Positions 32,264 to 47,757 of a DNA stretch of 64,000 nucleotides are shown here, in pieces. Source of the DNA: an uncultured Clostridia bacterium. GTDB lineage: Bacteria > Bacillota > Clostridia > Christensenellales > UBA1242. The translations under genes and the position numbers were made by a program. The notes beneath the pieces are model-generated. The model worked only from the letters and a program-made list of their open reading frames with translations. It was not told where the DNA came from and ran no database searches. Where the stretch lies: contig CAKVHC010000003.1 in assembly GCA_934747805.1 (NCBI GenBank), positions 64,402 through 128,401 of the forward strand. The letters are read 5' to 3'. Each line of letters opens with the position of its first letter. The stretch's first letter is position 1.

Positions 32264-33286
<1,023 letters not shown>

Positions 33287-33289
33287 AAC

Positions 33290-33312
33290 AACGCCCGCAG
33301 CGGCGTTTTTTT
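33290..33312 (+). terminator. gap terminator
   Basis: AACGCC/GGCGTT stem and TTTTTTT. Confidence 0.7.
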
Positions 33313-33370
33313 AATAAAAAAGATAAACTAAGTTTACCTTTATTCTATAAGTGGGGTGGATACAAGGACT
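33313..33370 (-). repeat. Direct-repeat copy: last 19 nt of tRNA-His (33352-33370) plus its 39-nt downstream terminator region
   Basis: 57 of 58 nt are identical to 33468-33525. Identity ends inside the T-loop. Confidence 0.85.
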
Positions 33371-33390
33371 TAGTCTATGTGGCTGCAAGC

Positions 33391-33449
33391 CATATATTTC
33401 GGGTGACGACGGAGTCGGCGGGGTCCCGAATACCGAAGGTGAGAGTCCG
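33391..33449. ncRNA. Candidate structured element, copy 1 (conserved with 39036-39091)
   Basis: CATATATTTCGG...CGGGGTCCCGAATAC...GTGAGAG.CCG is shared with copy 2. A compensatory change occurs in the inner hairpin. Strand and function unknown. Confidence 0.35.
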
Positions 33450-33467
33450 TGTACTTTGTGTTAAAAA

Positions 33468-33505
33468 ATAAAAAAGATAAACTAGGTTTACCTTTATTCT
33501 ATAAG
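33468..33505 (-). terminator. Terminator of the tRNA Gly-Arg-His operon (part of the 58-nt direct repeat)
   Basis: Minus strand reads AAGGTAAAC-CTA-GTTTATCTT followed by TTTTATTTTTT. Confidence 0.55.
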
Positions 33506-33582
33506 TGGGGTGGATACAAGGACTCGAACCTTGGACAACCAGATCCACAATCTGGCGCTCTACCAACTGAACTATATCCACC
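33506..33582 (-). tRNA. tRNA-His (anticodon GTG)
   Basis: Encoded G-1, acceptor GTGGATA, anticodon loop TTGTGGA, discriminator C, CCA. Confidence 0.9.
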
Positions 33583-33586
33583 ATAC

Positions 33587-33663
33587 TGGTGTGCTCGGGG
33601 GGATTCGAACCCTCGACCCTCGCCTTAGAAGGGCGATGCTCTATCCAACTGAGCTACGAGCAC
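33587..33663 (-). tRNA. tRNA-Arg (anticodon TCT)
   Basis: Acceptor GTGCTCG/CGAGCAC, anticodon loop CTTCTAA, T-loop TTCGAAT, CCA. Confidence 0.85.
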
Positions 33664-33722
33664 ATATTAATTTGTTTTATGAGCCTGTATTTGTTTGCAC
33701 ACATTACAAATATACTTATTGT

Positions 33723-33741
33723 GGAGCGGGTGATGGGAATA
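33723..33741 (-). repeat. Isolated copy of the last 19 nt of tRNA-Gly(UCC)
   Basis: Identical to 33855-33873 (TGGAGCGGGTGATGGGAAT). It starts at the same T-loop position as the tRNA-His fragment. Confidence 0.8.
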
Positions 33742-33854
33742 ATAATCTGACGATTATTGGCTTCGCACGAACTTTGTCCGCTTCAAACGACTGTCGTCGT
33801 TTTGTTGCTAACGCAACTCCATCACCTTGCAAAGCAAAGCAGAAATACAAACTA

Positions 33855-33928
33855 TGGAGCGGGTGATGGGAATCGGACCCACGCAGCCAGCTTGGAAGGC
33901 TGGAACTCTACCATTGAGCTACACCCGC
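33855..33928 (-). tRNA. tRNA-Gly (anticodon TCC) with non-canonical T-loop TCCGATT
   Basis: Acceptor GCGGGTG/CACCCGC, anticodon loop CTTCCAA, CCA. Position 55 is C instead of the near-invariant U. Confidence 0.8.
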
Positions 33929-33946
33929 ACAATGTCGTACTTTGAC

Positions 33947-33975
33947 ATAATAACACACAACACGACGTCAGTCAA
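33947..33975 (-). promoter_or_regulatory. Sigma-A promoter of the tRNA Gly-Arg-His operon
   Basis: Minus strand reads TTGACT (33975-33970), a 17-nt spacer, TATTAT (33952-33947). Confidence 0.65.
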
Positions 33976-34136
33976 TCGTTTTTTACAAAAAAGTTGGCAC
34001 CAAATTCTCATAATTACCAAAAAATAGCAGATAAATTTTGCAGAAACGCAAATAACACAGACCAAACCACACAATATAATAGTGCAAACATAATCCAACA
34101 TATAAGTTGCCAATGTGTTTGTAAAAGGGGGTTAGA

Positions 34137-34256
34137 ATGAGAAAGAAAGACTGTGCAAGAAATTGCTCAAATAAATCTCAAACTAACAGTGCAAAGAACT
34201 GCTCTAACAAAAGTCGAGCATGTTCAAACAAGTCGACATCTAGCCAAGAAGACTAG
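34137..34256 (+). CDS. Small Cys-rich repeat peptide (39 aa), not in ORF track
   Basis: AAAGGGGG RBS 5-12 nt upstream. Hand translation gives MRKKDCARNCSNKSQTNSAKNCSNKSRACSNKSTSSQED, with three (N/A)CSNKS repeats. Confidence 0.35.
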   Translation: MRKKDCARNCSNKSQTNSAKNCSNKSRACSNKSTSSQED

Positions 34257-34328
34257 TTCGACTCAGTGCCTAGTGGCACAATTTAGGTATTAGATTACTA
34301 ATACCAGTGTAGGCGACCGCCTACGTTT

Positions 34329-34357
34329 AAAAAGACTGCCAATTGGCAGTCTTTTTT
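34329..34357 (+). terminator. Rho-independent terminator; partially re-duplicated at 34368-34392
   Basis: AGACTGCC-AATT-GGCAGTCT followed by TTTTTT. GCCAATTGGCAGTCTTTTTTAAACT is repeated 30 nt downstream. Confidence 0.65.
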
Positions 34358-34593
34358 AAACTCCTTAGCCAATTGGCAGTCTTTTTTAAACTTCTTTGCC
34401 AAACGGCAAATCCATAACTCCTTCTGCACTTTGGCAATTATTTTAGATTATATTGTCAAAAGACTCATTGTCACAAAGTCATAAGTCGTGTGGCAGTTTT
34501 CTCTAAATATTTTCCACTTCAGAATACTTTTTTACAACCTTAGTGAAAAATATCTATGAATTAAACAACATTAAATGCATTCACGCACCAAAA

Positions 34594-36591
34594 TCAATCC
34601 GTCAGATAAAACGTGCAAGTTGAAAGCTTTTTGCGTTTTAGTTTGAGCACCTTGCCGCTTTGCGTCTCAAAGTAATAGTCCTTGTTGTATGGGCATTTTC
34701 CGCAATTTGCGTTAAGGTCGTTTTTCATAGGGCAGTGGCGGAGCGTCATATATGGGAACGGCGTCTTATTTATGAAGCAATCTTCACTGCACATCACCGG
34801 TAGACTGAGCAAGTTTGCAGTGTATTTGTTAAACACGTTCATGCCGCCACCAATCACTTTTTCGCATTTGAAATCTAGTGCGTACATATTGTTCACAATG
34901 ACCGCAATGTCGTTTTTCTCGACCAATTTTTTAAGATACGCCACATCGGCATCCAGTGCAAAATTCGGCAGATTAAGATAAAGTTTTTTGCCAAAACATT
35001 TGCACATTTCTTTCAAACTTGTGATCTCATTCTCATCATATATTTCAGGCGAGTAAATAACGTTCTTCGCAGGAGTTAAGCTAGGATTTTCTTCAAAGAT
35101 TTCAAAGTCGCTGAATATTTCGTATTTTAAATCCGTGTCAATTTTTAAATGCGGAAGGTTATGTTTATATTTCTCTTTAACTGCATCCAAAAGGACAGAG
35201 TAAAACACCCTTCTAAATTCGTTTAGTTTGCTCTTTTGAATGAACACGCCGTCAGTTTTGAACTCAATTTCAGGTGAGAAATACTCGTTTCTCTCAAAGT
35301 TGGCTTGTAATTCATCTTTGGATAAAGCTTGCGATTTTGCCTTGTCCAGCACGTCTCCAGTTAGTGTGACGTTGTAGAAATCTGTGCAAGCAGTAAGTCT
35401 TTTGCCTGCGAACGCTTCGATTGTAATTAGTATCGGCTTTTTGTGGACATAAGACAGGATTTCACTTTCCAATTCGGCGTCGGTTATTAGGTTGACCGAG
35501 TCGCCTTTTCTGGCTGGCTGTGTGGTGGTGACTAAGTATGTTTTATCTGCATTTTGTTTAAGGTCAAACAAGGCAATTGTGCTGATTTCCTTTTCTCCGT
35601 CAAAAATCTTGATAGACGACTTCGCACTCAGTGGGCGAGTCGAAGTGAACATTATCTCGTTGAACCTTTTACCTTTCTTCACATTCACCACTTCGCCAAT
35701 GCGACTGCCGATGTGGTTGTTGAATTTTGAAATGATGCTTCCGTTTCCGTCAAAATAACCAGCCGTAAATCCACGATTGAACGCAAGCTCCAAGTTTTTC
35801 TGATTTGCGGTCAGCCCGTCTACAGCCTTTCTATATTCCATTGTTGCCGTCGCCACATAAAAAGGTCGTCTAGCTCGCCCCTCAATTTTTAGTACGTCAA
35901 CGCCAGCGTATTCAAGTTTTGGTAGGGTGGTGGACATATTGAAGTCCTTTGCGCTTAATAGATAGCCCTCTGCCAGCGTCTTGCCCTGATTTTTGAGTTT
36001 GTATGGCAGGCGACAAAGCTGTTTGCATCTTCCACGATTTCCGCTAGCATCATACAAATACGAACTCAAATAGCAGTTGCCCGAGAAGCAAACACAGAGT
36101 GCCCCTTGTGCGAAATATTCAATCTCAACGCCTGCATTTTCCTTTATGTTCTTGATTTCTTCTAGCGGAGTCTCTCGTGCCAGAACCACTCTTTTGAAAC
36201 CAAACTTTTTCGCATTCAACACGCCTTCAAGATTGTGAAGCCCCAACTGTGTGCTGGCGTGCAACTCAATCTCAGGATAGTTAGTGTGCAGAATGTGCGC
36301 TAGCCCAAGGTCTTGAATAATGAAACAATCCACACCAAAATTGAAAGCGTCAATCACAAGGTTGACTGCGTCTTCGAGTTCGTCGTCGCGAAAAAGAATA
36401 TTCACCGCCAGATTGACCTTCACGCCGTGAATGTGCGCAAAACACACGACTTCGTCCAAGTCGTCCAGCGTAAATCCCTCGATATTGTTGCGTGCATTAA
36501 AATTGCTGATGCCCAAATACACTTCGTCCGCGCCATAATACACTGCCATTTTTAAGCTCTCAAAATTTCCAACAGGAGATAATATTTTCAT
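34594..36591 (-). CDS. Peptidase U32 family protein, long form (with C-terminal extension)
   Basis: MKILSPVGNFESLKMAVYYGADEVYLG, ARE..L, and the U32 Cys cluster region CVCFSGNCYLSSY...GNRGRCKQLCR. Confidence 0.8.
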   Translation of the reverse strand: MKILSPVGNFESLKMAVYYGADEVYLGISNFNARNNIEGFTLDDLDEVVCFAHIHGVKVNLAVNILFRDDELEDAVNLVIDAFNFGVDCFIIQDLGLAHILHTNYPEIELHASTQLGLHNLEGVLNAKKFGFKRVVLARETPLEEIKNIKENAGVEIEYFAQGALCVCFSGNCYLSSYLYDASGNRGRCKQLCRLPYKLKNQGKTLAEGYLLSAKDFNMSTTLPKLEYAGVDVLKIEGRARRPFYVATATMEYRKAVDGLTANQKNLELAFNRGFTAGYFDGNGSIISKFNNHIGSRIGEVVNVKKGKRFNEIMFTSTRPLSAKSSIKIFDGEKEISTIALFDLKQNADKTYLVTTTQPARKGDSVNLITDAELESEILSYVHKKPILITIEAFAGKRLTACTDFYNVTLTGDVLDKAKSQALSKDELQANFERNEYFSPEIEFKTDGVFIQKSKLNEFRRVFYSVLLDAVKEKYKHNLPHLKIDTDLKYEIFSDFEIFEENPSLTPAKNVIYSPEIYDENEITSLKEMCKCFGKKLYLNLPNFALDADVAYLKKLVEKNDIAVIVNNMYALDFKCEKVIGGGMNVFNKYTANLLSLPVMCSEDCFINKTPFPYMTLRHCPMKNDLNANCGKCPYNKDYYFETQSGKVLKLKRKKLSTCTFYLTD

Positions 36592-36782
36592 ACGCCACCA
36601 TTATACCATTTCCGCCCCAAAAAGTAAATCCATTGCGACCGAAACTTTGCCATCCATTTCCAAATCCCCAACAGTCCGTCGGAAGCACCAATATATTTGA
36701 CCTTTAGATAGCCAATCGTTTCCTTGTACAGATTTTAGCGAATGATAACATCAAAAGATAATTTCAAGGCAACTAATGGAAA

Positions 36783-36812
36783 CAAAAAAGCAGACTGTGT
36801 TAGTCTGCTTTT
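36783..36812 (-). terminator. Terminator of cassette gene 1 (hairpin family GCAGAC-N-GTCTGC)
   Basis: AGCAGACT/AGTCTGCT stem. The minus strand is followed by TTTTTT. Confidence 0.7.
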
Positions 36813-36823
36813 GGTAATTAAAT

Positions 36824-37414
36824 TTAGAAATCTCTGGTTCTATCGTATGCTTCTTGGTCTTTAACTTCTCTTTTAGTTTTAGAAACAGTGTCTTGAACTT
36901 CTTTTTTAGCTTTAGGAACAGTATTTGCTATTGCTCGTTCGAGTTTGGTGACGCATTTTACATCAACAATCTCGTTGCGATTATCATTACAGAATTCGTC
37001 TTCTTTATCGTCAATTCCTAAAGCCTTATAAAGTATTTTCTCGATTTTTTTCACTCTACCACTCTTATCGCCGCCACATCTTCTAATGAAATGGTCGAAA
37101 ACATCTCCTATTTGGTCACATTCAGTGAAAACATCGTGTCCAGTAAGGTCAGTTGCTCTTTTGCTATAAATGAGCGGACAAGCTACAGTAGTTTTTCCTG
37201 TACTACTCTTGATCTTATAAGCGTGGATCTCATAAGAATAACCGAGATCTTCAAAGATACGAGTTTCCAAACGACTTTCTACATCACAAATTTCTTTGCT
37301 CGTAAGGAACTTATATCTAGTTTCGTCATTATTCAAAATACCAAATTCCACTTTACCATCTTTGCCGATTACAGCACAAAGGTTTTTCAATTTAACTTTT
37401 TCGTTTTTGTTCAT
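36824..37414 (-). CDS. Hypothetical protein, tandem paralogue 1
   Basis: The true start is probably ATG 37414 (AGGAGGG RBS). The track's upstream extension translates the promoter. Shares the run SYEIHAYKIKSSTGKTTVACPLIY with paralogue 2. Confidence 0.55.
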   Translation of the reverse strand: MNKNEKVKLKNLCAVIGKDGKVEFGILNNDETRYKFLTSKEICDVESRLETRIFEDLGYSYEIHAYKIKSSTGKTTVACPLIYSKRATDLTGHDVFTECDQIGDVFDHFIRRCGGDKSGRVKKIEKILYKALGIDDKEDEFCNDNRNEIVDVKCVTKLERAIANTVPKAKKEVQDTVSKTKREVKDQEAYDRTRDF

Positions 37415-37439
37415 ACACCCTCCTAATTTTTGCAAGAGC

Positions 37440-37468
37440 ATTATAGCATATGCCAAAGTCGAATACAA
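37440..37468 (-). promoter_or_regulatory. Sigma-A promoter of paralogue 1
   Basis: Minus strand reads TTGTAT (37468-37463), a 17-nt spacer, TATAAT (37445-37440). Confidence 0.6.
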
Positions 37469-37486
37469 TACTTTTCTCAAAATTTA

Positions 37487-37518
37487 ATAAAAAAGCAGAC
37501 TATTAGGGTCTGCTTTTT
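37487..37518 (-). terminator. Terminator of cassette gene 2
   Basis: AAAGCAGAC/GTCTGCTTT stem with a 7-nt loop, flanked by A/T runs. Confidence 0.7.
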
Positions 37519-37528
37519 GTAATTAAAA

Positions 37529-38089
37529 TTAGAAACTTCTAGTTCTATCGTATGCTTCTTTGTCTTGGTCTAGGTCTTTTTTTCTAACCCCAGAAGCAGT
37601 ATTTGCGATTGCTTGTTCGAGTTTGGTAATGTATTCTACATCAACAATTTTGTTGCGATTATCATTACAGAATTCGTCTTTTTCATCGTCAATTCCTAAA
37701 GCCTTATAAAGTATGTTCTCGATTTTCTTTACTCTGTTAAGCTTATCATTACGACTTCTTTTGATGAAATGGTCGAAAATAGTGCATATTTGGTCATATT
37801 CAGTGAAAACATCGTGTCCAGTAAATGTGACAGTTTCTTTTTTTCGATAAATGAGCGGACAAGCTACAGTAGTTTTTCCTGTACTACTCTTGATCTTATA
37901 AGCGTGGATCTCATAAGAACAACCGAGATCTTCAACGTCATAGGTTTGCAATCCGCCTTTCACATTGCAAATCTCTTTGTCGGTAAAGAATTTAAATCTA
38001 GTACCTTCCTTGTTCAAAATGCCAAATTTCACATCACGACCTTTTTCGATTACGACCAAAAGGTCTTTCAATTTAACTTTTTCAGTCAT
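37529..38089 (-). CDS. Hypothetical protein, tandem paralogue 2
   Basis: ATG 38089 follows GGGAGGG. Colinear with paralogue 1 (same length class and conserved core). Confidence 0.55.
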   Translation of the reverse strand: MTEKVKLKDLLVVIEKGRDVKFGILNKEGTRFKFFTDKEICNVKGGLQTYDVEDLGCSYEIHAYKIKSSTGKTTVACPLIYRKKETVTFTGHDVFTEYDQICTIFDHFIKRSRNDKLNRVKKIENILYKALGIDDEKDEFCNDNRNKIVDVEYITKLEQAIANTASGVRKKDLDQDKEAYDRTRSF

Positions 38090-38114
38090 ACACCCTCCCA
38101 ATTTTTGCAAGAGC

Positions 38115-38143
38115 ATTATAGCAGATGCTAAAGTCGAATGCAA
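38115..38143 (-). promoter_or_regulatory. Sigma-A promoter of paralogue 2
   Basis: Minus strand reads TTGCAT (38143-38138), a 17-nt spacer, TATAAT (38120-38115). Confidence 0.6.
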
Positions 38144-38217
38144 TACTTTTTTTCAAATTTAATAAAAAAGCAGACCTTGTTAGGCTAACGTTAGTTCAAC
38201 AATGCAAGGAAGAATTT

Positions 38218-39027
38218 ATGCTTGGTTATGAAAAAATGTTGGAAATAATTAACCCTAGTGCTATACTGAGAACTATGATATTAAACAAATTAAATGAAGA
38301 GCAACTTAAAAGAACAAACAATTTAAAAGAGCGAAAGATATATGAATTTTTGCTGGATTCACGCAGAAATGAAAGGAAAAATAAATATATTTATGTTTTA
38401 ACATTAAATACAAATGAAAAAGTTGTGGCTCAGTTTGAAACCGAAATAGAGTTGGAAGAAATAATAAATGGACAGAAAGAAAAATACTGTGAATTGTCAT
38501 TTACAATATTAAACGTTGTGAAAAAGAATAAGAACAGCAAATTAAGAAAAAATAAGGTTCTATATTTTAATTATAGAAATGTTTTCACGGCATATGAATT
38601 ATTGGAAGATGACAGTAATCACACAGAAATTTTAACTAAAAATCAAATTTTAAAGTATAATTTTGAAGAATCATTCAGTATTCAAACGCTATACGATAAA
38701 ATTAATAGAACATTATGTATGCACCTATATTTTCACCCTTGGGCTCAAAAAGAAAAATTCAAACTTTCGCCAAAATCTGATTTGGAAATTCTATTAACTT
38801 TTTATAATGTTAAAAACGAAAAAGGTATTAAAAACAAAGATAACAGCGAGTGGGAAATTCGTGATACATATATCAAAGATGACAAAATCTGCTTTAAAAC
38901 AAGCGCTAATGACGATGATTTGCGTCTAGAAAAACTTGCTGAAATTAGTTTTGATTTTGATAAGGCAGAACTTAAAGTTGTTAAAGAAAAATATATTTAT
39001 TATTATAAAGGAAAATATGTGGACTAA
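38218..39027 (+). CDS. Hypothetical K/N/E-rich protein (AT-rich gene)
   Basis: ATG 38218 follows AAGGAAG. The track start 38125 would overlap the divergent promoter. No motif recognised. Confidence 0.45.
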   Translation: MLGYEKMLEIINPSAILRTMILNKLNEEQLKRTNNLKERKIYEFLLDSRRNERKNKYIYVLTLNTNEKVVAQFETEIELEEIINGQKEKYCELSFTILNVVKKNKNSKLRKNKVLYFNYRNVFTAYELLEDDSNHTEILTKNQILKYNFEESFSIQTLYDKINRTLCMHLYFHPWAQKEKFKLSPKSDLEILLTFYNVKNEKGIKNKDNSEWEIRDTYIKDDKICFKTSANDDDLRLEKLAEISFDFDKAELKVVKEKYIYYYKGKYVD

Positions 39028-39035
39028 TTTTAAGT

Positions 39036-39091
39036 CATATATTTCGGATGGCAACGAAGTTGACGGGGTCCCGAATACAAGTGAGAGCCCG
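39036..39091. ncRNA. Candidate structured element, copy 2 (conserved with 33391-33449)
   Basis: Same sequence frame as copy 1, with only transition differences and one 3-nt indel. Lies between the 38218 gene and the tRNA-operon terminator. Confidence 0.35.
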
Positions 39092-39108
39092 ACAAAACCG
39101 AAAAGAAA

Positions 39109-39137
39109 ATAAAAAAAACAGACTATGCTAGTCTGCT
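39109..39137 (-). terminator. Terminator of the tRNA Val-Gly-Cys-Leu operon
   Basis: CAGACT/AGTCTG stem. The minus strand is followed by 8 T. Same hairpin family as the cassette terminators. Confidence 0.65.
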
Positions 39138-39152
39138 TTGTTTGAAATAAGT

Positions 39153-39240
39153 TGGTGCCGATGGTCGGACTCGAACCGACATGGAGTTTGCACCCCGAAG
39201 GATTTTAAGTCCTTTGCGTCTGCCATTTCGCCACATCGGC
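39153..39240 (-). tRNA. tRNA-Leu (anticodon TAA)
   Basis: Acceptor GCCGATG/CATCGGC, anticodon loop CTTAAAA, long variable arm, CCA. Confidence 0.9.
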
Positions 39241-39245
39241 TCATT

Positions 39246-39320
39246 TGGAGGCACCACCCAGACTCGAACTGGGGAATAAGGGTTTTGCAGACCCTTGCCT
39301 TACCACTTGGCGATGGTGCC
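39246..39320 (-). tRNA. tRNA-Cys (anticodon GCA)
   Basis: Acceptor GGCACCA, anticodon loop CTGCAAA, discriminator U, CCA. Confidence 0.9.
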
Positions 39321-39368
39321 AGACAATAATTTATATGCACGTACAAAGTTTTCTGTTATATAAAAAAA

Positions 39369-39443
39369 TGGAGCGGAAGACGAGATTCGAACTCGCGACA
39401 TTTACCTTGGCAAGGTAACGCTCTACCACTGAGCCACTCCCGC
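39369..39443 (-). tRNA. tRNA-Gly (anticodon GCC)
   Basis: Acceptor GCGGGAG, anticodon loop TTGCCAA, canonical T-loop TTCGAAT, CCA. Confidence 0.9.
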
Positions 39444-40960: not shown

Positions 40961-41126
40961 GTTGTGGGGATATGTCGAACTAAACCACAGCCAAAGTGAG
41001 TGCAGGTCACTCGCTTTTTTATTTGTAGCTGGATTGTGTTGCTGTTCGCAACACTTTTGGCTAATTGCCAAAACGAACCAGCATGCTTTGAATTATATTT
41101 TTTCATCTCGCTAACAAAAAAATGCT

Positions 41127-42278: not shown

Positions 42279-42295
42279 CACAAAGTACGATCAAT

Positions 42296-42316
42296 ATGGA
42301 CCATTAGCTCAGTTGG
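42296..42316 (+). repeat. Copy of the first 19 nt of tRNA-Lys plus 2 upstream nt
   Basis: ATGGACCATTAGCTCAGTTGG is identical to 42461-42481. It diverges in the D-loop. Confidence 0.85.
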
Positions 42317-42460
42317 GGCGAAGTGTTAAATCAAGTTGCCGGTGGCAAGTTGATAGCCAGAGCCGACGAGTCGACTTGCGACGAAGGCCGGAAGAGCTCG
42401 CTCTACCAATTCGCTATAGTCTGTGTACAAGTCAAACTAAATAAACACCATATAACTATT
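42317..42460 (+). ncRNA. Transcribed structured spacer of unknown nature between the tRNA-Lys 5' fragment and tRNA-Lys
   Basis: Downstream of a consensus promoter. 11-bp hairpin ATCAAGTTGCC-GGT-GGCAAGTTGAT (42330-42354). Possible closing helix GGCGAA (42317-42322) / TTCGCT (42409-42414). Confidence 0.3.
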
Positions 42461-42462
42461 AT

Positions 42463-47397: not shown

Positions 47398-47403
47398 ATT
47401 TGT

Positions 47404-47734
47404 GCGTGAACAGATGGTCGCTGGGCAGTGATGAGAGCTGCCGAGAGGAAAGTCCGGGCTTCATAGAGCAGGGTGCTGGCTAACTACCAGTGGAGGCGAC
47501 TTTAAGGAAAGTGCAACAGAAAATTACCGCACGCAAGTGTAAGGTTGAAAAGGCGAGGTAAGAGCTCACCGCACACTAGGTGACTAGAGTGGCAATGTAA
47601 ACCCCACCCGAAGCAAGATTAAGCAAGGTCTAAGGTTGCTCGCCAGACCTTCAAAAGTATCGCTTGACCGTATTGGCAACAATGCGGCTAGATAGATGAC
47701 CATCAAATACAGAACTCGGCTTATAGTTCACCGC
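47404..47734 (+). ncRNA. rnpB: RNase P RNA
   Basis: Universally conserved GAGGAAAGTCCGGGC (47446-) and ACAGAACTCGGCTTAT (47709-). P1 pairs GTGAAC (47406) with GTTCAC (47726). Confidence 0.9.
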
Positions 47735-47757
47735 AACAGTCCTCGGACTGTTTTTTT
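47735..47757 (+). terminator. rnpB terminator
   Basis: ACAGTC-CTCG-GACTGT followed by TTTTTTT. Confidence 0.7.

Follow-up and report, generated by a model that had tools for sequence, protein, structure and literature searches.

The window analysed here, a 64,000-nucleotide (nt) stretch of DNA from a 'Clostridia bacterium' metagenome-assembled genome (MAG; assembly GCA_934747805.1, contig CAKVHC010000003.1, positions 64,402 to 128,401), encodes among other features a Gly-Arg-His and a Val-Gly-Cys-Leu tRNA operon on its minus strand. Beyond the 3' end of each operon, on the opposite strand, lies one copy of a short module that we term M. It is well supported that, in uncultured gut Clostridia, short non-coding cassettes sit at the 3' flank of tRNA operons and have M as their conserved core.

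The first-pass annotation of this DNA had placed two copies of a motif at 33391-33449 and 39036-39091, each just past the terminator of a minus-strand tRNA operon. Both copies are indeed found there, next to tRNA-His and tRNA-Leu(taa), and all substitutions between them outside the indel are transitions, as it had stated. The 15-mer CGGGGTCCCGAATAC has two exact occurrences in the window and no others with up to three mismatches, and repeat analysis of the window gave the two copies a common stretch of 47 nt with 85% identity. The boundaries drawn at that time were wrong: the module starts ~20 nt further 5' (at 33371 and 39015), which adds a covarying hairpin, P1, with the base TAT/ATA. Moreover, the 3' box GTGAGAG(T/C)CCG, then counted as part of the motif, is a separate module, namely the inverted and diverged T-arm of the local tRNA (His for copy 1 and Leu for copy 2). 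The segments formerly read as the 3' end of the motif are CGAAGGTGAGAGTCCGTGTAC, which comes from tRNA-His, and AAGTGAGAGCCCGAC, which comes from tRNA-Leu, and the 3' part containing the indel (CGAAGGTGAGAGTCCG versus AAGTGAGAGCCCG) differs between the two copies because the local tRNAs differ.

Copy 1 is the core of an insert between two 58-nt direct repeats, each of which consists of the last 19 nt of tRNA-His and 39 nt of its trailer. An insert flanked by a tRNA-His repeat had been described before; the flanking repeat stands, and the length of the insert is 96 nt instead of 97 nt. The T-arm copy that follows M matches tRNA-His at 15 of 18 positions (AAGGTGAGAGTCCGTGTA versus AAGGTTCGAGTCCTTGTA), a score attained by none of 300 shuffles, and it is able to pair with the tRNA-His 3' fragment at 33360-33369. 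For copy 2, the stop codon of the open reading frame (ORF) 38125-39027 falls within P1, and the T-loop and T-stem module of tRNA-Leu that follows M recurs in strains L082 and L087-L095. The parts of both units are listed in Table 1.

Table 1. Parts of the two M units in the window and the adjoining tRNA genes, in window coordinates
Feature	Position	Strand	Basis or detail
Displaced tRNA-His trailer and weak terminator, left half of 58-nt direct repeat	33313..33351	-	33313-33370 98% identical to 33467-33524
tRNA-His 3' fragment, positions 58-76 including CCA, T-loop break, abuts M	33352..33370	-	19-nt identity with the intact tRNA-His end
M copy 1: TTAGTC, P1, T, P2 enclosing P3, 3' bulge GGGT (33421-33424), TAC	33371..33433	+	Minimum free energy (MFE) fold, homologues, covariation
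Copy 1, P1	33376-33384 paired with 33388-33396	+	Loop GCA
Copy 1, P2	33398-33403 paired with 33425-33430	+	
Copy 1, P3	33404-33410 paired with 33414-33420	+	Loop GGA, A.G mismatch
Inverted, diverged tRNA-His T-arm and start of acceptor 3' strand (CGAAGG TGAGAGT CCGTG TAC)	33434..33454	+	Sequence comparison, shuffles
Trailer and terminator between unit and intact tRNA-His	33467..33505	-	Right repeat half
Intact tRNA-His(gtg), last in Gly-Arg-His operon	33506..33581	-	
M copy 2	39015..39078	+	Sequence, folding
Copy 2, P1	39016-39025 paired with 39033-39041	+	Bulged G, loop AATTTTA
Copy 2, P2	39043-39048 paired with 39070-39075	+	A.C mismatch
Copy 2, P3	39049-39055 paired with 39059-39065	+	Loop GAA, G.A mismatch
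Inverted, diverged tRNA-Leu(taa) T-loop and T-stem 3' strand (AAGTGAGAGCCCGAC versus GGTTCGAGTCCGAC)	39079..39093	+	Compared by eye
Bidirectional terminator common to copy 2 unit and tRNA-Leu operon	39107..39142	.	
Intact tRNA-Leu(taa), last in Val-Gly-Cys-Leu operon	39153..39240	-	

Homologues and cassette anatomy

A pattern scan with TTCGG-N12-20-GGGGTCCCGAATAC over 185,579 species, each represented by one genome, returned 24 loci, ten of which contain 12 true copies of M. These homologues occur only in Clostridia MAGs, assigned to Christensenella and to unclassified Clostridiales, whereas the remaining 14 loci are chance matches or belong to an unrelated 21-nt repeat of Treponema. M is kept across at least two lineages of Clostridia and at no fewer than seven different tRNAs. 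Its recurrence in unrelated genomes, each time in this setting, excludes a chance origin.

Neither Rfam 15 nor the phage and plasmid collections nor the literature searched for its core sequence yielded a match to M, in agreement with the earlier statement that it fits no known riboswitch or small RNA (sRNA) family. A search of the whole window against Rfam 15 at gathering thresholds gave tRNAs and RNase P only, and no match overlapped M either in 33000-39400 at E-values up to 10 or in eight related loci at E-values up to 1. Two pattern scans of viral contigs produced chance matches only (22 for a 14-nt core and 1 for the second pattern), and neither blastn of the tRNA-His unit against plasmids and phages nor a literature search for the core sequence returned anything relevant. 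An nhmmer search with the family profile over ~0.69 Mb of collected sequence revealed no additional diverged copies. The 19 matches to CTTCGGGTGGCA..TGACGGGG in a metagenome scan were due to chance or unrelated, among them sites within ClpA-like genes and a repeat from peat soil. A chance find of the metagenome scan is another repeated structured element on peat metagenome contigs (L056, L058, L059 and L063), which has the centre CTTCGGGTGGCAAGGAACGCTTGCTGACGGGGTGCCC closed by ctgtcgcgaaact/agtttcgcgacag and no obvious relation to M. The RNase P RNA of the window (47403-47739, 274 bits) is an ordinary bacterial RNA of class A.

All copies of M follow the 3' end of the final tRNA of an operon and are on the strand opposite to it. 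Read on the strand of M, a typical cassette is composed of the reverse complement of a tRNA 3' end, M, an inverted T-arm copy, a variable tail, a terminator and the intact tRNA, in this order. In most units, the segment before M is an 18-21-nt reverse complement of the local tRNA 3' end, beginning with TGG (the CCA end), and it matches the local tRNA, be it His, Leu(tag), Glu, Ile or Leu(taa). The break of the fragment always falls within the T-loop, as in ..GGAC TCG^TCTATG, where the caret marks the junction. Directly 3' of M, an inverted T-arm copy is present in eight of nine units, with scores attained by at most 6 of 300 shuffles. As the tRNA fragment and the T-arm copy are inverted repeats, they can pair around M. 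The junctions of M are constant (..TCG^TCTATG and CCCGAA^TCTATG), and P1 is unlike P2 and P3. The units measure 96-430 nt and contain no ORF; the variable tail sometimes includes two or more hairpins, and several units have a terminator past the tRNA fragment. We consider this descriptive account of the units as a whole to be very probably correct.

No recombinase adjoins any unit in the loci examined, where the neighbouring genes are ordinary or accessory ones such as those for GNAT, GrpB, amylase and LRR proteins, and no integrase was found within ~4 kb in ten loci or in the 21-kb loci of the strains described below. The sole recombinase seen in the loci is a resolvase (L078/L096), which belongs to a separate island at another insertion point. 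The earlier suggestion of an integrase arm site is unlikely, as hairpins with compensatory changes are atypical of arm sites and no integrase lies in or beside any unit.

Several other identities of the units were considered and rejected. Repeats that run past CCA into the trailer do not agree with a primer-binding site of the retroviral type or with a mature tRNA copy, and a guide RNA of the IS110, TnpB or IscB type was discarded as there is no such gene beside any copy. A likeness of ~10 nt to a Tn3-family terminal repeat found no support by BLAST, and a GTCTA..TAGAC terminal inverted repeat is limited to some units of the Christensenella type. A CRISPR array was rejected on the 58-nt array of L092, in which the whole period is identical, including the stretch between the hairpins.

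Two further units lie at other tRNA genes of the window. At tRNA-Gly(tcc), a second kind of unit (33722-33854) shows the architecture of M units around a different core. It begins with a 19-nt reverse complement of the tRNA-Gly 3' end (33722-33740), followed by the hairpin AATAATC-TGAC-GATTATT, the conserved box GGCTTCGCACGAACTTTGTCCGC and, in inverted form, positions 62-71 of tRNA-Gly (CTCCATCACC). One or two such units are present in other strains, and the hairpin covaries (AATGCC-ATAC-GGCATT in L067). A mirror-image unit without an Rfam match lies 5' of tRNA-Lys(ctt) at 42295-42462. It comprises a promoter-like TTGACA..TATAAT, a 22-nt repeat with tRNA-Lys positions 1-19 and a break in the D-loop, then a GC-rich structured insert of ~85 nt and a diverged reverse complement of tRNA-Lys positions 30-1. 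This unit is missing in L087 and L093, which have a different leader there.

Structure, covariation and folding strand of M

It is likewise well supported that M is a module of ~60 nt with adjacent hairpins, P1 being followed by P2, which encloses P3. The consensus reads (G)TCTAT, P1, ATAC/ATAT, P2 (TTCGGG/CCCGAA) enclosing P3 (T-GGCA..TGAC-G), a 3' bulge GGGT, and TAC. RNAalifold applied to an unguided MAFFT alignment recovers P2 as well as P1 with its TAT/ATA base, and MFE folding of the complete module as a single sequence yields P1 and P2/P3 for most copies. Single-sequence folding of an earlier, narrower interval was not significant (z of +1.9 to -1.9), and the structure became evident only after P1 and the homologues were taken in.

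Covariation was assessed on an alignment of 20 distinct copies. The structure has 92.4% of its cells paired, compared to 79.5% in shuffles (0/500 attain the real value) and to 22-45% in controls with slid partners, and the covariation score of 0.253 exceeds the 0.083 of the shuffles, none of 500 attaining it. Changes on both sides occur in eight pairs (45 cells), five of them in P1 and three in P3. The G-C to A-T compensatory pair that the first-pass annotation had seen in the inner hairpin is real; its proposal of a structured element holds as well, with P1 and P3 covarying over the 20 copies, and homologues in further genomes, which it had called for, show covariation above that of shuffles. 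One internal position of P3 is G.A in 13 copies, A.G in three, G.G in three and U-A in one. In addition, compensatory variants of P1 (TGGCT/AGCCA, TGACT/AGTCA and TGGC/GCCA) are found between strains of one species, together with several variants of P3.

The evidence points to the + strand, antisense to the tRNAs, as the strand that folds. Wobble pairs are asymmetric, with 19 G.T cells versus one A.C on the + strand and an invariant T.G at the base of P3. Among the loops of 3 or 4 nt in P1 and P3, 15 of 24 have the form G..A (GNA or GNRA) on the + strand, compared to none on the other. Folding energy likewise favours the + strand, for 13 of 14 copies; the means are -18.9 versus -14.9 kcal/mol. 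The GC skew is too flat to yield the direction of replication. The folded molecule may be either RNA or single-stranded DNA.

Three structural candidates were rejected. Inspection of either strand gave no complete tRNA-like cloverleaf, as the 3' strand of the acceptor is left without a partner. A ribozyme of the hepatitis delta virus type or another 5'-cleaving ribozyme would lack a P1 partner and has no Rfam match, and a promoter hidden in P1 is at odds with a spacer that varies from 16 to 22 nt.

Variation between strains

Contigs encoding the same or nearly the same GAPDH provided a strain set with 13 orthologous loci. At tRNA-His, M is absent in four strains (L070 and L072-L074) and present as one unit in five (L076, L077, L067, L069 and the window), and the tRNA is intact throughout, the empty strains included. 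Other strains carry a different cargo, N, on the same backbone, or the stacks M+N and M-N-M. An empty and a filled strain differ by exactly one block of 154 nt, which holds M, the T-arm copy, its own terminator and a tRNA-His 3' end. The block thus brings a replacement 3' end and terminator, so that the tRNA stays intact and the older end is displaced outward. This precise presence or absence between strains supports the tie to integration at tRNA genes that had been suggested earlier.

The tRNA-Leu(taa) locus varies more widely: one strain is empty, one has a complete unit with the tRNA-Leu fragment, two have head-to-tail arrays of M only, with a period of 58 nt and the junction CCCGAAT^CTATG, and several have, between copies of M, a 3.6-kb island with genes for a small-terminase-like and a ParB/DUF4417 protein. 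At tRNA-Gln(ttg), M is present in three strains (L091-L093), whereas the window has the backbone without M. In another genome (L023), a 1-kb GNAT cassette lies between repeats of the fragment, M and a partial tRNA. The units of L040 and L042 are identical save for the tips of P1, P3 and P4, and their flanks and terminators are unrelated. Such identity amid unrelated flanks implies either transfer between genomes or very strong constraint.

The backbone 3' of tRNA-Gln(ttg) in the window (40961-41110) consists of a degenerate T-loop and 3' fragment, GTCGAA CTAAACCACAGCCA (40974-40993), a terminator, and an inverted T-arm copy in two parts, GCTGGATT .. CGAACCAGC (41028-41082), which are separated by two hairpins; in L091-L093, M lies just past this backbone. 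An older stacked unit with yet another cargo, Q, is present at L032 2062-2300, at the same tRNA as an M unit. Cargo Q ends in CCGGG-TGGGGTT-CCCGG-CTATAC, which is like P2 of M without P3, and is followed by the same T-arm copy and tail. As judged from the sequence of this cargo, P3 may be an insertion into a simpler hairpin.

Other variable or conserved segments were noticed in the same regions. The window contains at 36781-38175 two to three tandem paralogous segments of ~680-705 nt that are 82-86% identical. Each has an ORF on the minus strand (218 and 204 amino acids, without a match in Pfam) and a terminator hairpin of its own, AAAAAAGCAGACT..AGTCTGCTTT, similar to the terminator of tRNA-Leu. 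Strains differ strongly in this region, and some have small-terminase-like and ParB/DUF4417 genes here. Just past the gapA terminator of L070 (3545-3640) and also of L071-L079, a conserved GC-rich element of ~100 nt that is not found in the window is closed by the long-range helix ggctgtgatgc .. gggcatcacagcc, and the islands of L078 and L075 start right after it, at AAATTTGTAC. The island between gapA and tRNA-His in one strain (L078 3918-6017 / L096 8753-11778) encodes the small serine recombinase (Resolvase) mentioned above, a PIN-domain protein, and a pair of RloB and AAA_21 proteins resembling a defence module.

Interpretation and comparison with known systems

We tentatively propose, with a probability slightly below even, that M is a cis-acting folded-strand module of cassettes that target the T-loop of tRNA genes. 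M would act in single-stranded, folded form on the strand antisense to the tRNA, with DNA slightly favoured over RNA, and a recombinase or nuclease whose gene lies at another place in the genome would recognise its shape and not its stem sequence. Joining would take place beside a T-loop-like GGWCYCG(AA), present in the tRNA gene and putatively mimicked by the 3' end of M. This 3' end, GGTCCCGAA, resembles the target, GGACTCGAA, and the M-M junction has the same form as the junction between the fragment and M; the mimicry and the likeness of the junctions would account for the M-M arrays. Circle or excision junctions are predicted to read ..TGGGGTGGATACAAGGAC^TTAGTC.. or, for 58-nt circles, CCCGAAT^CTATG. 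By analogy, M might behave like an integron attC site or a REP element, within an architecture comparable to that of the E. coli RtT repeats. If M is a cis site for T-loop-directed recombination, it would represent a new way to build cassette arrays in a major group of gut bacteria; if it is an RNA, it would stand for a structured RNA family that is new, covaries clearly and is tied in an unusual manner to the 3' ends of tRNAs. The strain polymorphism, with empty, single, stacked and arrayed states, makes the question testable in existing gut metagenomes and metatranscriptomes.

Several observations weigh against this proposal. No recombinase, transposase or other trans-acting factor was found at the loci, and because no such factor was identified, the mechanism is drawn from anatomy alone. 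The gain, loss and stacking of units between strains could stem from homologous or unequal recombination between modules of 18-58 nt, with no dedicated machinery. A double-stranded circle of 154 bp is implausible as an intermediate, and the sequence of P1 is too free to fit sequence-specific recognition as at the ends of IS200/IS605. The tRNA fragment is absent from the tRNA-Gln units and from copy 2 of the window, which has no recognisable tRNA fragment on its 5' side, and in L023 and L037 it is unlike the adjacent tRNA. GNRA tetraloops are more typical of RNA than of DNA. Finally, the alignment used for covariation was fitted by hand, and the invariance of P2 and the core is partly forced by the search pattern.

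A bolder extension, conceivable yet with a low probability in our view, takes M as a non-autonomous mobile hairpin of ~58-63 nt. It would insert as a folded single strand beside T-loop-like sequences, both the T-arm of tRNA genes and the 3' end of M that mimics it. Arrays resembling those of integrons, with empty as well as gene-bearing cassettes, would thereby arise where tRNA operons end, and E. coli RtT would be accounted for as well.

An alternative to the cis-acting module starts from the RtT repeats themselves, known since 1978 and to our knowledge never explained. Read-through of the tRNA operon would yield an RtT-like small RNA from the tRNA-sense strand, whose body is the reverse complement of M and in which pairing of the fragment and the T-arm copy is a signal for processing and stability. 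We regard this as unlikely. The parts follow one another on the tRNA-sense strand as in E. coli RtT (an inverted T-arm, a structured body, and the last 18-21 nt with CCA), but tRNA and unit usually have an intrinsic terminator between them. The terminator after the fragment in several units would suit such an RNA, whereas folding on this strand is poorer for 13 of 14 copies of M, the conserved T.G and other wobbles become C.A, and the G..A loops are lost. There is a precedent in RttR, an sRNA encoded by one E. coli tyrT repeat unit according to a passage of PMC3318445 that cites Bosl and Kersten 1991; however, the Rfam RtT model matches the four E. coli copies and none in the window or the eight related loci, and the M-only 58-nt arrays and the copies without a fragment are left unexplained.

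Also unlikely, in our opinion, is a functional RNA on the + strand, either an sRNA or an element of a 3' untranslated region, carried as cargo on a backbone that integrates at tRNAs. Such an RNA might use the 18 nt that are complementary to the tRNA 3' end, part of which the T-arm copy would mask through pairing. The wobble asymmetry, the GNRA/GNA loops and the folding energy favour the + strand, and the 3' untranslated region of a + strand ORF contains copy 2, with a bidirectional terminator after it; yet no conserved promoter is present upstream, and the sequence to the left of the fragment is unrelated from one genome to the next. Other cargos do share the backbone of GA(A/G)TAC, T-arm copy and terminator, as seen at the tRNA-His locus for cargo N, which is what remains of a + strand gene, and in L032 for cargo Q, but the head-to-tail arrays and the stacking look selfish and not regulatory, and in units of the Christensenella type the downstream terminator, as read from the sequence, serves the tRNA strand only.

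That M is a passive remnant, the functionless leftover arm DNA of past integrase islands in tRNA genes, is very improbable: Williams (2002, Nucleic Acids Research 30:866) is reported to have described tRNA 3' fragments starting in the T-loop as the usual scar of such integrations, and the loci are integration hot spots with islands and cargo genes nearby, but compensatory changes keep P1 and P3 paired even among close strains, the interior of units is identical between genomes with unrelated flanks, M is kept over at least two lineages and at least seven tRNAs, and integrases are absent over the distances given above.

Among known systems, RtT comes closest to M in architecture, and the integration footprint of M has a precedent in tRNA-targeting islands. 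Read directly, the E. coli tyrT-tyrV locus contains 178-nt units, each ending in the last 19 nt of tRNA-Tyr with a break in the T-loop, and the inverted T-arm copy of an RtT unit (GGGGAAGGATGAGAAGCTTCGA) matches at 19 of 22 positions. Both kinds of unit are non-coding, directly 3' of a tRNA, tandemly repeated, and unexplained in function and origin. Both end in the 3' end of the local tRNA (18-21 nt in M units, 19 nt in E. coli), and both contain an inverted T-arm copy able to pair with the fragment. However, they share no homology in sequence or structure, M units are usually separated from the tRNA by an intrinsic terminator, and the core of M folds better opposite the tRNA, occurs at many tRNAs and can flank cargo genes. 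M is not a member of the RtT family, because RF00391 matches the E. coli locus only (four matches of 133-138 bits as a positive control, none in the window or related loci); the units are nevertheless built alike.

M units resemble tRNA-targeting integrative elements in the direct repeat that runs from the T-loop to the end of the gene, the replacement 3' end, the presence or absence between strains, and the stacking with the newest unit next to the tRNA. They differ in being geneless, only 96-430 nt long and without an integrase nearby, and in a core made of covarying hairpins instead of arm-type sites, a single module serving many tRNAs.

The analogy to integron attC sites would be one of behaviour only. 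M might share with them recognition by shape with free stem sequence, a constant non-Watson-Crick position in the stem and strand asymmetry, as well as the position at cassette boundaries, arrays at one primary site, and empty next to gene-bearing cassettes. By contrast, M is without R/L boxes, intI and attI, its primary site would be the T-loop of a tRNA, and Clostridia are not typical hosts of integrons; no GTTRRRY was found in the 20 aligned copies and no integrase gene in the loci.

A similar analogy could be drawn to REP/BIME with RAYT and to PATEs, palindrome elements derived from IS200/IS605, which like M are short, extragenic, imperfect palindromes at gene 3' ends, single or clustered. 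They are non-autonomous and act as hairpins of single-stranded DNA, as M may do. M differs in that its copies are few per genome, mutually diverged and strictly bound to tRNAs, with a duplicated tRNA end, and in that the sequence of P1 is not conserved.

The attP(+) site of CTX phage is a forked hairpin that undergoes Xer-mediated single-strand integration at dif. By analogy, the two inverted segments of an M unit, ~75-90 nt apart, could fold so that the stem represents one side of the target. In M units this side would be tRNA positions 59-69, and the identity to the target stops inside the presumed crossover region. The target of M is a tRNA T-loop and not dif, and there are no phage genes and no recognised site of the Xer type. 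Altogether, M connects tRNA genes as integration sites, hairpin recombination sites and the unexplained RtT repeats of E. coli, which are usually separate topics.

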